A DNA stretch of 63,699 nucleotides, the filler included, from Candidatus Fermentibacterota bacterium (GTDB lineage Bacteria; JAFGKV01): the NCBI GenBank assembly GCA_016928395.1. It is 9 parts of 9 records of this genome, joined end to end, with 100 filler letters (N's around TTAATTAATTAA, not from the genome) between each part and the next. Parts side by side here need not be neighbours in the genome. Positions count along the whole stretch, not along the records: positions 7,008 to 35,520 come from JAFGKV010000254.1; 8 more parts are not named here. The stretch is one strand, 5' to 3'. Every line of letters starts with the position of its first letter. Positions within the stretch are counted from its first letter, which is position 1. Positions 29,308-60,950 of the stretch are shown here, in pieces. Position numbers and translations under genes: made by a program. Under the pieces are notes generated by a model, which worked only from the letters and a program-made list of their open reading frames with translations, had not been told where the DNA came from and did not search any database.

Positions 29308-29493
29308 ATGAAGCGCACTGAACTCGAGAGACGCCTGAGACATCTCGGGTGGAGGTTTCTTCGTCACGGTGGCAAGCATGACGTGTGGGCGAAAGGCGAT
29401 CGGGAGGTCATTGTGCCTCGACACAATGAGATCAACGAGTACACTGCCAAGGCCATTCTTAAGGAAGCCGGGGCAGACACGGAGGTTGGGTGA
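29308..29493 (+). CDS. hicA: HicA family toxin
   Basis: 61 aa with RHGGKHDVW...VPRHNEINEYTAKAIL. Confidence 0.9.
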   Translation: MKRTELERRLRHLGWRFLRHGGKHDVWAKGDREVIVPRHNEINEYTAKAILKEAGADTEVG

Positions 29494-29544
29494 GCGAATG
29501 CGTAACCCAACAAGGCTTCCGAGCCAGGATCGAGGAGTGGACGG

Positions 29545-29991: not shown

Positions 29992-30270
29992 TGTACGCAT
30001 CCATTCAAGGCCAGCCGAGCAAGGCGTTACGGACCTGGCTGCGTTTCAGCAGACGTAGGTTGGGTTACGCTGCGCTCGCCCAACCCAAATACGGTGCATA
30101 TCTTGGCGCGAAACCCTGATCCGTGAACTCCCATTGCAGCGACGACCGGAGGGAATGCCCGTGAAACGAGGAATGATGAAGCCGAAGAATCTGTTGAGCC
30201 TCCTGAGGAACTGCTTCGGACGACACAGAGGTCGTCGCGGCGTAGCCCACTATGATCGACGGAGGATGCG

Positions 30271-30477: not shown

Positions 30478-30914
30478 TGACATACCTTGTAGACACGAAC
30501 GTGTGGCTCGAGCGCCTACTGGACCAAGAGCGTTCTCGGGAGGTTGCGCTTTTCCTTGATGCGACCCGTCCAGCGAGTCTTTCTATGACTGACTTCTGCC
30601 TCCATTCCATCGGCGTGGTGTTGACGCGACTGTCGAGAGGAGAGGCCTTCGGGAAGTTTCTGTCTGACACGATTGTGGACTCTGGCGTGAATCTGATCCG
30701 CCTCGATGCTGAGGATCTTCGAACGCTGCTCCAGGTACATGGGCGATATGGGCTGGACTTTGATGATGCTTACCAGTACGCCGCCGCCGAGAAGTACAAC
30801 CTGACCATTGTGAGCCTGGATTCTGACTTCGATCGCACCGACCGCGGCCGGAAGACCCCGGGCGACGTGCTCAAGGAGATGACATCCGGGCCACGCCCGA
30901 ACCATGAACCGTAA
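30477..30914 (+). CDS. PIN-domain (VapC-like) toxin
   Basis: YLVDTNVWLE...LDFDDAYQY...IVSLDSDFD. Confidence 0.9.
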   Translation: MTYLVDTNVWLERLLDQERSREVALFLDATRPASLSMTDFCLHSIGVVLTRLSRGEAFGKFLSDTIVDSGVNLIRLDAEDLRTLLQVHGRYGLDFDDAYQYAAAEKYNLTIVSLDSDFDRTDRGRKTPGDVLKEMTSGPRPNHEP

Positions 30915-30974
30915 ACCGTGCACTGTGAACTCGTCGCGTGGCGACGACCGGAGGGGATGCCTGTGCAACGACGA

Positions 30975-32735
30975 ATGAAGACTCTGCCCGCCCTCGCCCT
31001 GATGTTGGCATCGCTGGCCGTGCCCGCCCTCGCCTTGGAACGCCTCGCCGTGCTCGATCTCCGCGCACAGGACGATCGGGTGGATGCGCGGGACGTGGCG
31101 CAGATCGGCGACGAATTGCGCACGCAGATCGTTGTCCTCGGCAGCCGTCGAGGCACCTTCAGATGCCTTGATCGCCAAGAGATGGAGTCGCGGCTGCGGG
31201 AGATGGCGTTCTCCCTCACGGATTGCGTAGACAACGAGTGCGTGTTGGAGGTCGGGCGTGCCCTGACCGCGAAGAAGATGGTGGCGGGCCAGGTCGGGAA
31301 GGTCGGAACCCTATTCAGGATTTCCGCCCACCTTCTCGATGTTGAAACCGGCGAGATCGCGCAAGCCGCGTCGGTGCAGATAACCGGTGGCATCGAGGAA
31401 GTGCTGCGGACCGGCGTGCCGCAGATCGTGGCGAAGCTTTTCGGCCTTGCCGAGCCCACACCGACGCGTCCTCCAGCGCCCGAGCCCTCGCGTCCCACGG
31501 TTCAACCTCCCGCGACAACCGATGCGGCCGATCTTTTCGCCCAGGCGGGAAAAGCCTATACGGCGGGGAGGTGGCTGGAGGCGCTTCGCCTCTATGAGCG
31601 GGTTGACGCGCTCGAGCCCGGCAATCCGGTGGTGGCGATGCGCATCAAGGAGTGCGCTACCAAGGCCGATGAAGCCAGCAAGGCAGCCGAGTATGAGGCG
31701 TGGCGGCAGGATGCCCTGCGGAAACGCGACTTCTACGTCGAGACCGCTCGGGGCCTCCTGAACGCCAACCGGTCGTGTGAGGCAGGGAAGTACGTCTTGC
31801 TGGCTTTTGCCGGTGATTGGCAGTGGAAGCAGGGAAGAGATCTTGTTGAAGACGTTCTTTGGAAGTCGTCGACGCCTGACCAGTGCTGCGATGCGGACGG
31901 GGCGTTCAGTTCGCTCTCACTGGATGCGAAGTATATCAACGACCTGAAGCAGAACGCCCGGCAGGTCTGCGCGGGGCTCAAACCTGGCTCGCTGGTCATC
32001 GAAGTCTCGGAGGAGGGGGCTTCGGTGGCGCTGGATGGCTCACGCATCGGCGCAAGCCCGCTTCCGGCGCGCAAGGTCAAGGCTGGGAGTCATCAGATAG
32101 CTGCGACGAAGCAGGGCTTCCAGGATGCGCGGACCACCGCGGTGGTCTCGCCGGGAGCGACGGTGACGGCATCGCTGAGGCTGGTTCCCGACACCGGTGC
32201 CGCCGACATTCTGTCTACCCCCACGGGGGCTCGGGTAGTGGTCAATGGCGTCGAGATCGGCGTAACTCCTCTTCAGGGCGTGCGCCTGCCGGTGGGTCGG
32301 CAACCGATCACGCTGACCATGCCGCGGCACGAGTCGTGGAGTGGATGGCTTGATCTCGGCCCCGAGCGTGCGACGCGGCTTTCGGAGACGCTGCTCCCCA
32401 AGACCAAGGGCAAGGCGCTGGCACGATCTGCCGCACTCCCGGGCTGGGGACAGCGCTACATGGAGCATCCGGGACGGGGATGGGCGTACACGGTAGTGCA
32501 GATCGCGGCGGTCGGCGCGGCCGTGTACGGCTACTCGGCGCACAGTTCCGCCCTCGACGAATACGACGAGGCGCGGGCCGCGTTCGTGAACGCGACTGCG
32601 GGTCACGAGGCCCTGTGGGAGACGATGGAGGCGAAGCACCAAGAAGCGACCGACACGCAGAAGACCGCGAACCTGACGATGTCGCTGGCGTTGGGCATCT
32701 ACCTCTGGAATCTCGCCGATGCGCTGCTGTTCTGA
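30975..32735 (+). CDS. Secreted CsgG-like + TPR-like + PEGA-domain protein with C-terminal DUF5683-like membrane region
   Basis: Signal peptide, LAVLDL...CVDNECVLEVG domain, two PEGA repeats (GASVALDG, STPTGARVVVNG..IGVTP), and RSAALPGWGQRY. Confidence 0.75.
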   Translation: MKTLPALALMLASLAVPALALERLAVLDLRAQDDRVDARDVAQIGDELRTQIVVLGSRRGTFRCLDRQEMESRLREMAFSLTDCVDNECVLEVGRALTAKKMVAGQVGKVGTLFRISAHLLDVETGEIAQAASVQITGGIEEVLRTGVPQIVAKLFGLAEPTPTRPPAPEPSRPTVQPPATTDAADLFAQAGKAYTAGRWLEALRLYERVDALEPGNPVVAMRIKECATKADEASKAAEYEAWRQDALRKRDFYVETARGLLNANRSCEAGKYVLLAFAGDWQWKQGRDLVEDVLWKSSTPDQCCDADGAFSSLSLDAKYINDLKQNARQVCAGLKPGSLVIEVSEEGASVALDGSRIGASPLPARKVKAGSHQIAATKQGFQDARTTAVVSPGATVTASLRLVPDTGAADILSTPTGARVVVNGVEIGVTPLQGVRLPVGRQPITLTMPRHESWSGWLDLGPERATRLSETLLPKTKGKALARSAALPGWGQRYMEHPGRGWAYTVVQIAAVGAAVYGYSAHSSALDEYDEARAAFVNATAGHEALWETMEAKHQEATDTQKTANLTMSLALGIYLWNLADALLF

Positions 32736-32875
32736 AGAGTGAAGAGTGAAGAGTGAGGAGAGTGCTGCCTCGTCGGAGTCTTTGGAGCTCGGCGTGGACG
32801 CCGCAGAGCGGCGTCCACGTAGGTTGGGTTAGCGAATGCGTAACCCAACATTGACCTGTGGAAAGTGACGTGACG

Positions 32876-33178
32876 ATGACCGAACAGGACAAGCAGGCGG
32901 TCAAACGGATGCTGGCGCAGTGTTTGAGTCGTGATCGCGAGGTCACCAAGGTCGTGGTGTTCGGGTCATTCCTGACCAGCGAGACGCCACATGACATCGA
33001 CGTGGCGGTCTTCCAGGACAGCGGGGAGGGCTACCTCCCTCTCGCCCTGAGGTATCGCAAGAGGACACGCGCCGTCTCTCGGATCATTCCTCTCGATATC
33101 ATACCCGTCGGCTCGCGTGCCGGGAGCGGGCCATTCCTTGCGGAAATAGCCAAGGGAGAGGTGATCTATGAGCGGTGA
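32876..33178 (+). CDS. Minimal nucleotidyltransferase (MNT) antitoxin-like protein
   Basis: VFGS...DIDV...LDI motif; overlaps the HEPN gene. Confidence 0.85.
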   Translation: MTEQDKQAVKRMLAQCLSRDREVTKVVVFGSFLTSETPHDIDVAVFQDSGEGYLPLALRYRKRTRAVSRIIPLDIIPVGSRAGSGPFLAEIAKGEVIYER

Positions 33179-33545
33179 GTCTCTTCGCTGGCTGAGCTAC
33201 GCCGCGGAGAACCTACGATCCGCCGAGGTCTTGCTGGAGAGTGGATTGTACAACCCGAGTCTGCAGAATGCGCAACAGGCCGTCGAGAAATGCCTCAAGT
33301 CCCTCCTCATTCGGCACTCGCTGGAGTTCAAACGGACGCATAGCATTGCGGGCCTCAGAGCGCTCCTTGCCGAAGCCGGTGTGGTGGTTGACCTGAGCGA
33401 TGACGAATGTGATCTGCTCGATTCGATCTATCTTCCGTCGAGATACCCTCTCGGCAGTGCTCTGCCGGATTTCGAACCCGATGAGGAGCTGTGTCACCGG
33501 TGCAGCGAGATCGCCGAACGAGTGCTGAATGCCGCTGGGTTATGA
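33168..33545 (+). CDS. HEPN domain protein
   Basis: W...A...L...AQQAVEKCLK...THSI...YLPSRYP. Confidence 0.88.
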   Translation: MSGESLRWLSYAAENLRSAEVLLESGLYNPSLQNAQQAVEKCLKSLLIRHSLEFKRTHSIAGLRALLAEAGVVVDLSDDECDLLDSIYLPSRYPLGSALPDFEPDEELCHRCSEIAERVLNAAGL

Positions 33546-33679
33546 GACGATGTCGTCAGTTGGAGCCCCGGATCCAGCGGAGCTGGACCAAGCGCCGACA
33601 GGCGCGAACGAACTGAGAGCTGAGAGCGGATAGTCGATAGCAGATAGCTTCGAGCGGAGCTCGGACACGGGAGGATGAG

Positions 33680-34807
33680 ATGCGAACATTGTTGATCGTG
33701 GCGGGTCTGGCGACGATTGGGTTCTTGTTGGTCCCACGTTGCGCCAAGGAGCCGACGGCGTTGCCAGCGCAGGAGTGGATTGACCTACTGTCGCCGACGC
33801 AGGGAACTACCTGGACGGTCGGCGACACCGCCAGCGTCACCTGGACCTCCCGCGGAACCTCGGGCCAGGTGAAGATCGAGCTGAGCCGAGGCGGGTCATC
33901 GTGGACAACTCTTGGGACCGTTTCTGCCAGTGCAAACGCATACGACTGGGTCGTGACCGGGCCTGAGGCAACCGGGTGTCGGGTGCGGGTGAGTGATTCC
34001 GCCGACGGGAGCCCAAGCGTCCAGAGCGGCGCCCTTGCCATCAGCGAGTTCCACTCCCTTCTCGACATGGTCTCCCTCTCAGGCGGGACGTTCCAGATGG
34101 GGTCGACGTCGTCGTGGGCGTACTCCTGGGAGCAGCCGGTGCACCAAGTGACCGTATCGGCCTTCTCCATTGCCAAGGATGAAGTGACGCAGGCCCAGTA
34201 TCAGGAGGTGATGGGGACGAATCCGTCGTATTTCCAGGGGGCGAACCGGCCGGTGGAGCAGGTGACATGGTGGGATGCGGCGAAGTTCTGCAATGCGTTG
34301 AGCGCGAGGGAGGGGTTGACGAAGTTCTACAACGATGATGATTTGAACAGTCAGGCGAGCACGGTGCGGATGACGTGGAGTGCGAACGGGTATCGGTTGC
34401 CGACCGAAGCGGAGTGGGAGTATGCGTGTCGTGCGGGGAGCACGACAGACTTCTACAACGGGAACCTGACGAATCCGTACTGTGAGCCATTGGATCCGAA
34501 CCTGGATCTTATCGGGTGGTACTGCGGGAACTCGAACGACCAGACCCACGACGTGGGCGGCAAGCAGCCGAACACGTTTGGGTTGTACGACATGAGCGGG
34601 AACGTATGGGAGTGGTGCAATGACTGGTATGGGGACTATTCCTCGGGGTCGCAGACCGATCCGACTGGGCCGAGCAGCGGGTCGACCCGGGTGCGACGCG
34701 GCGGCAGCTGGTACAGCTACGCGCAGAGCTGCCGCTCCGCGTACCGCTACGACTACTCGCCCGGCTACAGCTACTACGACATCGGCTTCCGTCTCGTTCG
34801 CCGTTAG
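33680..34807 (+). CDS. DGR target: lipoprotein with Ig-like domain and FGE-sulfatase-type C-type-lectin domain
   Basis: Signal peptide ending in Cys (LLVPRC), an Ig-like Ser/Thr-rich domain, and FGE-fold motifs FQMGS, EVTQAQY, RLPTEAEWEYACRAG, GLYDMSGNVWEWC, RGGSW and GFRL. HRDC and avd-like genes follow. Confidence 0.9.
   Translation: MRTLLIVAGLATIGFLLVPRCAKEPTALPAQEWIDLLSPTQGTTWTVGDTASVTWTSRGTSGQVKIELSRGGSSWTTLGTVSASANAYDWVVTGPEATGCRVRVSDSADGSPSVQSGALAISEFHSLLDMVSLSGGTFQMGSTSSWAYSWEQPVHQVTVSAFSIAKDEVTQAQYQEVMGTNPSYFQGANRPVEQVTWWDAAKFCNALSAREGLTKFYNDDDLNSQASTVRMTWSANGYRLPTEAEWEYACRAGSTTDFYNGNLTNPYCEPLDPNLDLIGWYCGNSNDQTHDVGGKQPNTFGLYDMSGNVWEWCNDWYGDYSSGSQTDPTGPSSGSTRVRRGGSWYSYAQSCRSAYRYDYSPGYSYYDIGFRLVRR
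34688..34807 (+). other. DGR variable region (VR), with IMH-like 3' end
   Basis: 13 codons (8 TAC, 3 AGC, 2 GAC) lie between the invariant GGSW, CRSA.R and IGFR scaffold. Each is one A-substitution away from AAC. Confidence 0.8.
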
Positions 34808-34847
34808 GTTTGGGATTTTGAAATTCTTACCTTTTGCGGGTCTTGGG

Positions 34848-34935
34848 CGCGGGGCCACAGCCGACGCGGCAGCGAAGCGGAGCCGCGGGCTGTGGCCCCG
34901 CGGGAGACGCCGGAGCGCCCTTGGGCGTTCCGGCG
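34848..34935. repeat. Two GC-rich inverted repeats downstream of the VR (candidate DGR homing hairpin/cruciform)
   Basis: Perfect 15-bp stem at 34848-34862/34888-34902 enclosing cgcggc..gc-GAA-gc..gccgcg. Second stem at 34908-34920/34923-34935 with one mismatch. Confidence 0.8.
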
Positions 34936-34944
34936 CAGCCGAAA

Positions 34945-35442
34945 ATGGCGGATCTTCCCGATAGCGGTCTCGATCACCGTTTGAGGATCTTCACGGTGGC
35001 GTTCGACGCGGAGACGAAGACATTCCGCGATGAGGAGCTACGGCTGTTCCTGGCCGGCAGGCGGCTCCTGCGCTCGGAAGCCGCGTTCTTCCAGGTGGAC
35101 GGCGTTCCCTTTTGGTCGGTGCTCTTGGAGTATCGGGAGGGGCCGCACGAAGGAGAACCCAAGGAGGAACCGCTGGCCGGGCCGGCGGGAGCGCTCATGG
35201 AGCGGCTTCGCGAATGGCGCAAGGAGGAGGCCGCGCGGCGAGGGCTTCCCGTGTACGTGATCGCCACGAACAGCGAGCTTCGGCAGGTGGCTGCCCGCAT
35301 GCCGCACTCGTTCGAGGGGCTGCGTTCCATCAAGGGTTTCGGGAAGCGCAAGATAGAGGAGTACGGCGCCGCGATTCTGGAGGAGGTCAAATCGTTCGTA
35401 GGGGAGCGCGCGCGCGCCGAAGGAGGCAGCCCTGATGCGTGA
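34945..35442 (+). CDS. HRDC-domain protein (DGR accessory)
   Basis: LMERLREWRKEEAARRGLPVYVIATNSEL...IKGFGKRKIEEYGAAIL HRDC domain, preceded by an N-terminal domain (FTVAFD...FWSVLLEY). Confidence 0.88.
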   Translation: MADLPDSGLDHRLRIFTVAFDAETKTFRDEELRLFLAGRRLLRSEAAFFQVDGVPFWSVLLEYREGPHEGEPKEEPLAGPAGALMERLREWRKEEAARRGLPVYVIATNSELRQVAARMPHSFEGLRSIKGFGKRKIEEYGAAILEEVKSFVGERARAEGGSPDA

Positions 35443-35520
35443 AGACTATCCGGTGTTCGTGCACTGGTATCGCTTGCTGGATTGGATCCTCGACACCGTG
35501 GAGCGCTTCCCCAAGAGCGC
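35435..35520 (+). CDS. avd: Avd (accessory variability determinant)-like four-helix-bundle protein, 5' fragment
   Basis: Manual translation after an AGGAGG RBS: MREDYPVFVHWYRLLDWILDTVERFPKS. The L.W...(K/R)FPK N-terminal pattern is typical of Avd. Cut by the contig end. Confidence 0.78.
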
Positions 35521-36142
35521 NNNNNNNNNNNNNNNNNNNNNNNNNNNNNNNNNNNNNNNNNNNNTTAATTAATTAANNNNNNNNNNNNNNNNNNNNNNNN
35601 NNNNNNNNNNNNNNNNNNNNCGCCCGTCGCGAGGCTCGTACCATGCTGTCTGCAGCATATGCGGCGAGGAGAAGAACTTCCCCGAACAGGAACCCCGGTA
35701 CAGATTCGCTACGCAGAGGAAGCCGGTTCCACCGCCGATCGCGGACACCACACCGCTGGGTGGTTGAAGGCGCACGTAAGGAAACCTGGGGACAGCCCAG
35801 ACCCCACTCCCCATCAGGCGGACACTGTTCTGTCTTTCCCTCGAAGGCGGGGAGAGGGAATCCAGGACGTGACTTGTCTGTATCTGCTCTCTCTTCAACC
35901 CCTTGGAATCCCCCATTTCGCCTGAGACAAATCTTCGATGCTCCTGAGGCGTCCGCCTTTGGCGGATTGGGGGTAGAATAGTAAACGCAGAGGGGCTTCG
36001 ACCCTCTTCTCCTGAGGCGCATCTTCGATGCACGCCCCAATAGATGGAGCTTGCGCAGCAGAGCGCCGGGTAGCCGACCCGACGGCCAGAAGAGAAACGG
36101 CAATTGTGGCGCACTTCTTCGCTTGGTATGATGGGGCCGACA

Positions 36143-53193: not shown

Positions 53194-53404
53194 CCACCCT
53201 CACCTCTATCCTCTCCCATCGAGGGAGAGGTTTCCCCTGTGCATCCCCTTTTCCACCTGGATTCCCGCTTCCGCGGGAATGACAAGGAGNNNNNNNNNNN
53301 NNNNNNNNNNNNNNNNNNNNNNNNNNNNNNNNNTTAATTAATTAANNNNNNNNNNNNNNNNNNNNNNNNNNNNNNNNNNNNNNNNNNNNATGGTGGAATC
53401 ATGG

Positions 53405-53452
53405 GATGGTGGAACGATGGAACGGTGGAACGATGGAACGATGGAACGATGG
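53405..53452. repeat. Short tandem octamer repeat (GATGGAAC)n
   Basis: Directly visible next to a contig end. Confidence 0.8.
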
Positions 53453-53774
53453 AGCAAGCGCCCAGCCAGCCAGAGGGCACGGTGAGACATAGGGCAAAGC
53501 GGTGGCAGGTTTCTTGCATCTTCTCAATCTGAATGGTCAAGGTTCTTGACCGGGCCGCCGCGTCGTGGTACTTCGTCGCCACTGTCTGGTCCCACGCCCG
53601 GCGCTTCTACCTGTGCGCCGCCGTATCGCGTCCAGCTCACACCTGTCAGGAAACCGGGTGCGACGACGTGATGCTTGGCACGGGGGGTTGATGCTGCTTA
53701 TTTAGAGTGATAATCAGTATCATTAGCTTCACTCATCTCCCCAACTCCCCGTATGTGCGGAAAGGAAGCGCCCC

Positions 53775-60823: not shown

Positions 60824-60950
60824 AGGGTTCAGGGTTCAGGGTTCAGGGTTCAGGATTCAGGATTCAGTCGGGCCTCCGAGAGTCAAGGCACTCAAGTCTT
60901 TCGGGGTTGAGAGGACGAAACATTGGAACATTGGAACATTGGAACGATGG
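60824..60950. repeat. Short tandem repeats (AGGGTTC)4(AGGATTC)2 and (AACATTGG)3
   Basis: Directly visible at the contig start. Confidence 0.85.

Follow-up and report, generated by a model that had tools for sequence, protein, structure and literature searches.

Can a gene cassette that runs into a contig end 86 nt into its last readable gene still be recognised as a diversity-generating retroelement (DGR), and if so, as one of which kind? This question is raised by the 3' end of a contig from a Candidatus Fermentibacterota bacterium (assembly GCA_016928395.1). The window, i.e., the whole stretch of DNA analysed here (63,699 nucleotides, filler included), joins 9 contigs of the genome. A preliminary description had noted an FGE-type gene, GC-rich hairpins, an HRDC gene and the start of an open reading frame with an AGGAGG ribosome-binding site, and had proposed that the reverse transcriptase (RT) and template repeat (TR) of a DGR lie just beyond position 35520. 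All of these features were found where it had placed them, as four features on the plus strand in the order target gene, hairpin pair, HRDC gene and avd start (33680-35520). In detail, the region comprises:

33680-34807, plus strand: target gene (DGR target, 375 aa), from the PF03781 and TvpA matches
34679-34804, plus strand: predicted variable repeat (VR), the last 42 target codons, from alignment to the TRs of relatives
34808-34838, plus strand: AT-rich/T-rich motif directly 3' of the target stop codon, from its match to the subgroup consensus
34848-34902, plus strand: hairpin 1, a long GC-rich inverted repeat with a 15-bp outer stem and inner stems, from DNA folding
34908-34935, plus strand: hairpin 2, a 12-bp GC-rich stem with the 4-nt loop TTGG, from DNA folding
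34945-35442, plus strand: HRDC accessory gene, 165 aa from ATG 34945, from the PF00570 match
35421-35426, plus strand: avd ribosome-binding site AGGAGG, 8 nt 5' of ATG 35435, read from the sequence
35435-35520, plus strand: start of avd, readable for 28 complete codons up to where the contig stops, from BLASTP, an Avd HMM and alignment

The contig end is real: positions 35521-35620 are occupied by one of the window's 8 spacers, N...TTAATTAATTAA...N, and the assembly breaks 86 nt into avd. The neighbouring genes on the contig encode UvrB, MiaA, RodZ and glycosyltransferases. With these chromosomal neighbours, no phage families on the contig and no phage record containing a full-length relative of the HRDC protein, the cellular, non-phage setting proposed earlier stands. 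PHROGs returned no match for the HRDC protein or the 28-aa avd fragment. The host had further been assigned to a poorly characterised lineage, which fits a UvrB whose identity to the 80 best-matching species representatives does not exceed 60%. The genome has a G+C content of about 62%, and most relatives of the cassette are AT-rich.

The target gene and its predicted variable repeat

Residues 129-374 of the target match the FGE-sulfatase domain (Pfam PF03781, E 9.8e-57). Among solved structures, the best sequence match is TvpA of Treponema denticola (2y3c_A, E 2.1e-42), which covers residues 147-373 and thus includes the VR, whereas true FGEs match the target at only about 1e-20. By this match the target is TvpA-like, in agreement with the C-type-lectin (CLec)-fold, FGE-type target initially suggested, and the predicted C-type-lectin fold of the protein is taken from its solved relative. 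The gene is preceded by GGGAGGA 5 nt 5' of its ATG. It encodes an N-terminal hydrophobic signal or anchor followed by a weak Ig-like region, for which the Ig-like matches in Pfam fall below the cut-off. The signal peptide of a bacterial lipoprotein closes with a lipobox of the consensus [LVI][ASTVI][GAS]C. In the translation, read by eye, the hydrophobic stretch is followed by V-P-R-C at residues 18-21. Because V-P-R preceding Cys21 does not form a canonical lipobox, the term 'lipoprotein' appears doubtful for this target.

The predicted VR (34679-34804) and 7 TRs from verified DGRs can be aligned gap-free. With these TRs of other organisms serving as a proxy for the window's own TR, the VR differs from the 7-TR consensus at 15 of 29 TR-adenine columns versus 2 of 48 conserved non-adenine columns (Fisher p 1.9e-6), and 4 validated VRs behave like it in the same test. 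At the AAY-codon columns, all 10 window codons end in C and none is AAC; against a background of 31.5% C-ending codons among the 333 upstream codons, this corresponds to a binomial p of 1e-5. The adenine-mutagenesis pattern expected at the 3' end of the target is thus apparent in both measures, and by sequence this end carries the fingerprint of a DGR VR. An exact look-up among 15 billion proteins returned both the target and the HRDC protein as singletons, so that there are no population variants of the VR to compare. A word-index search of 5.8 billion protein clusters gave 445 candidates, among which only the query itself was recovered.

The HRDC accessory, the avd fragment and their relatives

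The HRDC gene ends at 35442, and its start is uncertain. ATG 34945 agrees with the N-termini of relatives, while the public gene call uses TTG 34921 (173 aa) and a mechanical ORF list TTG 34834. The protein consists of a small N-terminal beta-alpha-beta-beta domain and a C-terminal HRDC domain (Pfam PF00570, E 5.9e-22). In an AlphaFold model (pLDDT 88.7), the HRDC part superimposes on the RecQ HRDC domain 2rhf with a TMt of 0.91. The N-terminal domain, modelled alone (pLDDT 90.2) and compared with 48,161 chains, gave a best structural match of Z 5.0 with no family prominent, and no fold was assigned.

The 4 closest relatives of the HRDC protein among 185,579 species genomes are encoded in two Nitrospirota MAGs (loci L087 and L088), a Melioribacteraceae MAG (L089) and a Spirochaetales MAG (L090). 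All four loci have the order FGE target, HRDC, Avd and RT, with the RT directly after avd. Of the mismatches between TR and VR in these loci, 20/21, 19/22, 18/26 and 20/21, respectively, coincide with an adenine of the TR. The window's protein aligns with the accessories of these verified DGRs over its full length, N-terminal domain included, at 42, 36, 33 and 32% identity for L087 to L090. This full-length alignment, unlike the RecQ-type matches, bears out its interpretation as a DGR accessory. In a quick tree, the protein falls into a set (SH-aLRT 99) comprising 22 Avd-type entries, 2 entries without a detected next gene and itself; of the 53 entries on the other side, 52 are RT-type. No other entry has an end branch as long as that of the window's protein (1.17), whose composition is atypical. 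The full-length match and the tree together place it in the DGR accessory family and not with RecQ or RNase D. A scan of genome contigs with the single HRDC protein had retrieved only HRDC domains of RecQ-type helicases (L001-L006), which are irrelevant here. The best HRDC identity found anywhere in the genome and metagenome scans was 42-43%. None of the complete cassettes detected thus comes from a close relative, and since a metagenome scan with the HRDC alignment yielded nothing closer than 43%, the missing half of the cassette was not recovered from it.

The reading frame that follows starts at ATG 35435, overlaps the HRDC stop by 8 nt and is readable for 28 full codons to 35520. BLASTP aligns the fragment residue 1 on residue 1 with the Avd N-terminus of L089 (17/28 identical, 61%; 23/28 positives; E 4e-14). 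An HMM of the 4 syntenic Avds scores it at 36.8 bits. Among the 3,494 28-mers of the window that begin at a start codon, it is thereby the sole outlier, beyond what chance would give, as the runner-up reaches 3.8 bits. In an ungapped alignment with 22 Avds, the invariant residues W11 and P26 are present. On the curated model NF033474 (DivGenRetAVD), residues 6-28 align with positions 2-24 of the ~104-position profile at 12.4 bits (E 0.15), below the cut-off of 80 bits because only 28 residues are available; a Pfam search of the fragment gave no Avd match (family PF22296, bAvd). The Avds of L087-L090 reach 95-107 bits on NF033474, above the curated cut-off, and just two of the four match the generic four-helix-bundle model, at only 18-20 bits. 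On the distinction raised in the preliminary description, these matches taken together point to a DGR-specific Avd and not to a generic 23S-IVS protein, and we assign the start of the 35435 frame, as predicted from these matches, to the N-terminus of a DGR Avd. A complex prediction for the Avd and HRDC accessory of L089 scored 0.00, which is evidence neither way.

The cassettes of relatives divide by what follows the HRDC gene. The HRDC-Avd-RT type (L087-L090 and about 20 distinct metagenome loci) shares the gene order target-HRDC-avd with the window, and in L087 and L089 the HRDC stop and the avd start also overlap as they do here. In the metagenome scan, avd comes after 30 of 32 accessory-type HRDC genes (one lacks it, and one locus is too short). 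Behind avd matches scoring 130 bits or more, an RT is encountered a few hundred bases on at most, provided that the sequence reaches far enough. At their N-termini the targets are diverse, with a trypsin part in L087, a kinase part in L089, caspase-PEGA in L186, and a signal with an Ig-like region in the window. In 60 of 66 accessory-type genome loci, the RT directly follows the HRDC gene. Such HRDC-RT DGRs, mostly from Bacteroidota, share with the window an FGE-type target and a two-domain HRDC accessory with 25-27% identity to its own; three examples (L041, L062, L065) have 17/19, 16/16 and 21/22 TR/VR mismatches on TR adenines. Unlike the window, they have no avd and no T-rich motif flanking the VR (0/57), and they form a separate clade in the HRDC tree. 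Finally, three related lineages contain RT-less remnant cassettes with avd cut near residues 45-58. In L007, the avd frame passes near residue 45 into a fused sequence resembling a TR 3' end; in L180/181/182/185/186, unrelated genes come after an avd of 60 aa; and in L187-190, avd has 58 aa and the next two genes encode tyrosine recombinases (PF00589, 1.6e-34 and 2.7e-41).

The T-rich motif and hairpins behind the predicted variable repeat

Directly 3' of the target stop codon, HRDC-Avd-RT DGRs carry a T-rich motif, with GC-rich hairpins behind it in several loci, as in the window. The subgroup consensus, derived from 20 non-identical copies, is stop-TTTTTGGATTTTTAC-N-TTTTTACCTTTT. The window motif at 34808-34838 corresponds to it with one good and one degenerate unit, the last unit being TCTTACCTTTT at 34825-34835. 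On both strands of the 63.7-kb window, the pattern T[TC]TTA[CAG]NTTTT has a single match, at the expected place 3' of the VR. Within 450 nt upstream of the HRDC gene, the motif is present in 26/28 HRDC-Avd loci versus 0/57 HRDC-RT loci, at a background frequency of 0.04-0.06 per kb, and it was not found after the TRs of relatives. A conserved T-rich motif directly after the VR is thus, as judged from these counts, specific to the HRDC+Avd subgroup. In the open-access literature searched, no paper was found that links this motif, or RT-14, with DGRs.

The GC-rich hairpins first noted by inspection proved to be two, at 34848-34902 and 34908-34935, with a folding z of about -5.3: the DNA fold of 34800-34945 has an energy of -50.2 kcal/mol (z -5.29, range -5.3 to -5.4), and none of 200 shuffled sequences was as stable. 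Hairpin 2 is not followed by a T-run, and 33400-35520 contains no terminator-like site and no promoter consensus. An Rfam search of 33000-35520 gave nothing credible, the sole match being a C. elegans snoRNA model at 24 bits. Inverted repeats downstream of the VR are reported for 34% of DGRs and are not universal (Wu et al. 2018, PMC5758913). In the prototype DGR of Bordetella phage BPP-1 (mtd-avd-TR-brt), a GC-rich inverted repeat downstream of the VR is described as required for efficient homing (Guo et al. 2011, PMC3240598). It shares with the window an Avd, an inverted repeat and a C-type-lectin-fold gene that terminates in the VR; unlike the window, it is phage-borne, lacks an HRDC gene and diversifies Mtd instead of an FGE-type target. 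The BPP-1 hairpin, as described, has an 8-bp stem and a GRNA loop and lies 4 bp after the VR, and a 4-nt GRNA loop is given for phage DGR hairpins (PMC3240598). Those of the window have stems of 12 and at least 15 bp and loops that both differ from GRNA, and hairpin 1 begins 41 nt 3' of the target stop, behind the T-rich motif.

A sediment metagenome, run X1, contains 0.67 of the sampled words from the window. A 129-nt contig of this run matches 35434-35520 without differences and extends 42 nt past the contig end. No long contig of the same strain was recovered from run X1 at 80% likeness, and the run is silent on VR heterogeneity and on the TR. Matching at this likeness gave 453 contig records, mostly FGE genes of other organisms. 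A 771-nt contig that matches 34602-34841 with 44 differences reads through the T-rich motif and is therefore another target gene, not the TR.

Readings of the truncated cassette and its place among DGRs

We consider it likely that the region represents the 5' half of an HRDC-containing DGR in a chromosomal location and belongs to the avd-carrying subgroup; with neither RT nor TR in the window, an intact element is likely by inference. Among the 57 ORFs of the window, Pfam identified no RVT_1 domain, and 1,530 six-frame stretches searched with an HMM of 7 DGR RTs contained neither an RT nor, for the Avd search, a further Avd. The segment 34500-34830 has no second copy in the window (best non-self match 26 nt, E 0.16). 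By synteny with relatives, RT and TR would be placed just beyond 35520, as the preliminary description had supposed, and the TR would be expected ~1.3-1.5 kb past the contig end because 3 of the 4 closest relatives have the order Avd-RT-TR. On the same grounds, the missing part would comprise ~85 more avd codons, an overlapping RT gene of ~330 aa and, directly 3' of it, a TR of ~120-130 nt, possibly followed by a structured spacer RNA.

The cassette could instead be decayed or interrupted, with RT, TR or the remainder of avd lost by deletion or separated by an inserted mobile element, and the VR left as a frozen record of past diversification, while target, HRDC gene and avd start survive. The RT-less state of three related lineages (see above) lends this reading some weight, as does the position of the contig end so shortly into avd, where an inserted repeat could explain the assembly stop; nor do the other 8 contigs of the window contain an RT or TR. 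These 9 contigs are all that the window covers of the genome, however, and where sequence continues in other distinct Avd-type lineages, a full avd and RT are found. Moreover, the 28 avd codons are intact, highly conserved and equipped with their own ribosome-binding site, the HRDC and target ORFs are intact, and the run X1 contig continues 42 nt past the end, so that we regard a decayed element as unlikely.

A cassette split across the genome, in which avd is complete past the contig end, RT and TR reside elsewhere and the gene seen here is a remote target with local accessories, would have precedents: seven remote targets are on record for the Treponema DGR, and 45 of 372 surveyed DGRs have such targets (PMC5758913), and the position of the TR varies among relatives, lying between target and HRDC gene in L090. 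We judge this arrangement very improbable given that an RT follows at short distance wherever a strong avd match has enough sequence, and that, truncated remnants excepted, no HRDC-avd pair without an adjacent RT was seen. Barely credible, and largely refuted, is a reading with no DGR at all, by which three genes would be neighbours by chance, the first for a lipoprotein or an enzyme of the FGE family, the second for an HRDC protein that acts alone, and the third for a generic four-helix bundle of the 23S rRNA IVS type. The first scan with the HRDC protein alone, which gave only RecQ-type domains, and the 12.4 bits of the fragment against a cut-off of 80, as must be with 28 residues, are compatible with it. 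Against it stand the significant VR fingerprint, the DGR-specific scores of the relatives' Avds (95-107 bits versus 18-20 bits, in 2 of 4, on the generic model) and the recurrence of gene order, HRDC N-terminal domain, Avd N-terminus and VR-flank motif in verified DGRs.

For the 5' half of a chromosomal DGR, the following course of events may be proposed. The target would be a secreted or membrane-anchored TvpA-like protein whose C-terminal CLec (FGE-type) ligand-binding surface is encoded by the ~126-nt VR. In the established DGR model, an RT-Avd complex would reverse transcribe TR RNA, misincorporating opposite template adenines, and the cDNA would replace the VR. The T-rich motif and hairpins, which would follow the VR and be missing behind the TR, would render the transfer one-directional, and binding of nucleic acid during transfer is presumed for the HRDC protein. 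The data show what the target, the HRDC accessory and the Avd start are, together with the mutagenesis fingerprint of the VR and its conserved flank; that RT and TR exist intact, that the element is active today and what the HRDC protein does belong to the conditional account.

Among published systems, the closest description is Architecture C of Wu et al. (2018, NAR 46:11, PMC5758913), the HRDC-containing DGRs of Treponema type, in a survey that lists 11 architectural variants; its target category 'b' denotes a CLec1 VR within an FGE-sulfatase domain. The survey lists HRDC DGRs as 14 of 372, about half of them with avd. It also agrees with what had been stated earlier about HRDC accessories and FGE targets in Treponema: like the window, the T. 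denticola TvpA DGR has an FGE-type target with a C-terminal VR and an HRDC accessory gene. As in Architecture C, the window's cassette is encoded on one strand in a chromosomal, non-phage setting, with avd as in about half of the HRDC DGRs. It differs from Treponema-type DGRs, with cassettes compared by published description, in its unplaced host lineage and in an HRDC protein at most 43% identical to anything found.

An HRDC+avd DGR with an FGE target is a published architecture, and the window's cassette is an ordinary though divergent example of it. Since FGE-type targets and HRDC and Avd accessories are all known already, the find is ordinary for biology at large; it adds a divergent, high-G+C, chromosomal case from an unplaced lineage to a small published set (14/372). 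It also indicates that a cut cassette is recognisable by its front half alone, through VR fingerprint, flank motif, HRDC accessory and 28 Avd residues. As a by-product of the comparison, HRDC accessories split cleanly into an Avd-containing and an Avd-less clade, and only the former has the conserved T-rich motif at a fixed distance 3' of the VR and not after the TR.

A tentative and somewhat doubtful extension is that the T-rich element and hairpins constitute a VR-specific homing signal of the HRDC+Avd lineage, recognised by the HRDC protein or by Avd-RT to tell VR from TR. If so, the motif would replace or complement, in a sequence-specific manner, the IMH/cruciform logic established for BPP-1, and the HRDC accessory would gain a concrete, testable role. 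As a target-recognition signal, the motif would offer a handle for probing HRDC function and for locating remote targets in genomes.

A cassette cut by the end of its contig

The nine contigs of the window are separated by spacers of the form N...TTAATTAATTAA...N, and the cassette occupies the 3' end of contig three, the longest (7008-35520), beyond which the spacer 35521-35620 follows. The preliminary description had placed a target gene, hairpins, an HRDC gene and an ORF start with its own AGGAGG ribosome-binding site on one strand (33680-35520), and all are present as described:

33680-34807, +: target gene, 375 aa; Pfam FGE-sulfatase, E 9.8e-57, residues 129-374
34848-34902 and 34908-34935, +: two strong GC-rich hairpins in the 137-nt spacer between target and HRDC gene; z-score -5.3 to -5.4
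end at 35442, +: HRDC-domain gene; PF00570, E 5.9e-22
35435-35520, +: ORF start, putative avd 5' end; 28 full codons up to the contig end

Target residues 35-93 gave Ig-like Pfam matches only, all below threshold. None of 200 shuffles of the hairpin spacer folded with equal stability. Judged by sequence, the HRDC gene has more than one candidate start: ATG 34945 agrees with relatives, TTG 34921 is the public gene call, and TTG 34834 opens the longest ORF and would place the hairpins inside coding sequence. The ORF beginning at 35435 shares 8 nt with the end of the HRDC gene, and its AGGAGG sits upstream at 35421-35426.

A reverse transcriptase (RT) and a template repeat (TR) are the components that define a diversity-generating retroelement (DGR), and the evidence here comes from the front half of the element and from its relatives. 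Blastn found no second copy of the target 3' end in the window (best non-self match 26 nt, E 0.16), none of the window's 57 non-overlapping ORFs carries an RVT_1 domain, and the Avd and RT HMMs built in this analysis matched only the known avd fragment among 1,530 six-frame stretches of the window.

Genes on the contig encode UvrB, MiaA, RodZ, thymidine phosphorylase, glycosyltransferases and large surface proteins. The cellular, non-phage setting proposed earlier is upheld by these chromosomal neighbours, by a Pfam search that found no phage families on the contig, and by phage records, 0/14 of which cover at least 80% of the accessory protein, the HRDC domain alone being matched. Against its 80 best species representatives, drawn from many phyla, UvrB reaches no more than 60% identity, so the lineage is unplaced. 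Directly upstream of the target, a nucleotidyltransferase (Polbeta, E 6.7e-7; 32858-33178) and a HEPN protein (E 2.4e-26; 33168-33545) form an overlapping pair resembling MNT/HEPN toxin-antitoxin systems, and a PEGA-domain protein (30918-32735) lies two genes upstream of the target. Among related loci, the DGR target at L186:1617-3500 is a caspase-PEGA-FGE fusion, and FGE is fused to trypsin in L087 and to a protein kinase in L089. The contig also carries a 35-nt palindromic repeat (94% identity; 29478-29512 and 32816-32850) and a 69-nt repeat (77% identity; 30111-30179 and 30913-30981) across the starts of two neighbouring genes; tandem 8-nt repeats of the TGGAACGA / TGGAACAT type occupy the very starts of two other contigs (53390-53468 and 60900-60950).

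Relatives of the target, the HRDC accessory and Avd

The target had been described as a gene of the FGE-type C-type-lectin fold. By sequence, its best solved relative is TvpA, a variable protein of Treponema denticola (2y3c_A, E 2.1e-42), as against about 1e-20 for true formylglycine-generating enzymes. The target was used to scan 185,579 species genomes; 537 matched stretches included 509 relatives, and the best 80 were retained and compared with themselves for loci holding a second copy of the gene 3' end. Where the two copies differ, the downstream one has an adenine at 17/19 mismatches in L041, 16/16 in L062 and 21/22 in L065; by their sequences, these three loci are genuine DGRs. Each has the target, then a small HRDC protein, then RT directly. 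The HRDC protein of the window aligns with theirs over its full length at 25-27% identity, including an N-terminal domain of about 55 residues that belongs to no Pfam family.

A genome scan with the HRDC accessory alignment returned 80 loci, the closest being L087 (42%) and L088 (39%) from Nitrospirota MAGs, L089 (34%) from Melioribacteraceae and L090 (34%) from Spirochaetales. All four run FGE-sulfatase target, HRDC gene, 112-120-aa gene, RT. On NCBIfam NF033474 ('diversity-generating retroelement protein Avd'; cut-off 80) the 112-120-aa gene reaches 95-107 bits, and it also matches Pfam bAvd. Their TR and variable repeat (VR) mismatch at TR adenines in 20/21, 19/22, 18/26 and 20/21 cases (L087 to L090, in order), with the TR directly after RT in L087-L089 and between target and HRDC gene in L090. 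At L088:5514-5816, in a verified DGR, an ORF with a GIY-YIG nuclease domain (PF01541, E 7.8e-20) sits between the HRDC gene and avd. A metagenome scan with the same alignment added 50 loci (best identity 43%).

Gene following the HRDC gene (accessory type: HMM score at least 120)
Genome set, 80 loci: avd 4; RT 60; nothing detected 2; too short 0; non-accessory RecQ-like HRDC 14
Metagenome set, 50 loci: avd 30; RT 0; nothing detected 1; too short 1; non-accessory RecQ-like HRDC 18

In a maximum-likelihood tree built by a quick search from 78 accessory proteins, the window protein falls inside a set with SH-aLRT 99, together with 22 Avd-type rows (HRDC gene then avd) and two lacking a detected next gene; of the 53 rows apart from this set, 52 are RT-type (HRDC gene then RT, no avd). 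The end branch leading to the window protein is longer than any other in the tree (1.17). In a structural model from the 78-sequence alignment (pLDDT 88.7), residues 12-65 form a beta-alpha-beta-beta N-terminal domain and residues 79-158 a helical HRDC domain, with a disordered linker between the two; Foldseek matched the HRDC part to RecQ and RNase D HRDC domains (2rhf, TMt 0.91). Modelled alone (window 34972-35157), the N-terminal domain is confident (pLDDT 90.2) and conserved in both accessory clades; among 48,161 chains it had no convincing structural relative (best Z 5.0).

The 28-residue fragment at 35435, which the preliminary description had suggested running against Avd profiles, is too short for curated libraries: NF033474 gives 12.4 bits (E 0.15), in register, with residues 6-28 on profile positions 2-24. 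Its sole Pfam match, delta-lysin, is spurious. Scored with an HMM of the four syntenic Avds, the fragment reaches 36.8 bits; of the window's 28-mers that begin with a start codon and contain no stop (3,494 over six frames), the runner-up reaches 3.8. The fragment matches the L089 Avd from residue 1 to residue 1 (17/28 identical, 23/28 similar; pairwise E 4e-14) and aligns ungapped with 22 distinct Avds, both invariant residues, W11 and P26, being present. This identity to L089, the Avd HMM and W11/P26 rule out a generic 23S-IVS protein; by sequence comparison, the fragment is the start of a DGR-type Avd.

An adenine fingerprint and the state of the element

The VR region (34673-34812) aligns with seven TRs of verified DGRs, its core without gaps. 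At columns where at least 6/7 TRs agree, and with templates from other organisms in place of the window's own TR, the window differs from the consensus at 15/29 adenine columns vs 2/48 conserved non-adenine columns (Fisher p 1.9e-6). The same holds for the validated VRs of L087-L090, which keep 10-18/29 adenine and 42-47/48 non-adenine columns. At the ten codon columns with an AAC/AAT consensus the window reads ACC, TAC, AGC, AGC, TAC, GAC, TAC, TAC, TAC and TAC, never AAC (0/10), and the third position is C in 10/10; further upstream in the gene, 31.5% of 333 codons end in C (binomial p 1e-5). Adenine-specific mutagenesis yields change limited to positions 1-2 of AAC codons, and ordinary divergence does not; the templates compared here come from other organisms. 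That the locus is no DGR at all is barely credible.

Passages of Wu et al. 2018 give FGE-sulfatase targets with CLec1 VRs as the largest target category (71/372, example TvpA), HRDC genes in 14/372 DGRs ('Architecture C', with the Treponema DGR as representative, about half also with avd), and GC-rich inverted repeats after the IMH in 34% of DGRs. On every testable point the window element fits Architecture C as described there, and it appears from its sequence to be a divergent newcomer to the known HRDC-type DGRs.

We consider it probable that the DGR is intact. A decayed or interrupted cassette is a minor prospect with precedents: three related lineages keep target, HRDC gene and only the first 45-60 Avd residues, with no RT. 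At L007:6814-6987 avd is fused to TR-end-like sequence; in L180, L181, L182, L185 and L186 (L186:4342-4524) it is cut short with no RT; and in L187-L190 (L187:2179-2355) two tyrosine-recombinase genes follow the shortened avd. The window contig ends before the point at which avd is cut in these remnants and so cannot be told apart from them, but a 129-nt sample contig reaches 42 nt past 35520. The cuts near residue 45-58 in three related lineages may mark a recurrent break or insertion point. For the HRDC/avd junction (35325-35463), the sediment metagenome run X1 yields two 139-nt sample contigs with 0 and 14 differences; at least two related strains with the cassette thus coexist in the sample, and strain mixture is an alternative cause of the assembly break. 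A split cassette is highly improbable. The proposed DGR is supported wherever testable, with RT and TR unseen, and an intact element remains the reading we prefer.

A motif flanking the variable repeat

Right after the target stop codon, the window, which is 62% G+C, takes an AT-rich turn (34808-34838). At the same place, a fixed distance 3' of the VR, relatives (L087-L090, L168-L199) carry a T-rich direct-repeat motif, for which 20 non-identical copies give the consensus stop-TTTTTGGATTTTTAC-N-TTTTTACCTTTT. Across the two strands of the 63.7-kb window, the pattern T[TC]TTA[CAG]NTTTT has a single match, at 34825, 18 nt past the stop. The 450 nt preceding the HRDC gene contain the motif in 26/28 Avd-type loci (counting loci with 150 nt or more available; near-identical copies among some metagenome loci leave about 19 independent cases) vs 0/57 RT-type loci, against a background of 0.04-0.06 per kb. 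It was not found after TRs, whose ends differ and are followed by another conserved flank. In L089:3725-3868, L168:2522-2669 and L174:3604-3752 this flank scores 49.7-65.7 bits on the Rfam model RT-14 (RF02921; gathering score 48.1), with no match in the other 13 of 16 scanned HRDC+Avd loci; RT-14 RNA is probably the spacer RNA that flanks the TR in this group of DGRs.

The window and several relatives have GC-rich hairpins 3' of the motif. Efficient homing in phage BPP-1 requires a GC-rich inverted repeat immediately 3' of the VR, and no such repeat follows the TR (Guo et al. 2011, PMC3240598). By analogy, motif and hairpins would together act as a recipient-site signal, and likely do so here. 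Our search of open-access literature turned up no paper on the motif. This VR-flank motif, which tracks the Avd-containing HRDC clade, is the one point at which the element goes beyond the ordinary.
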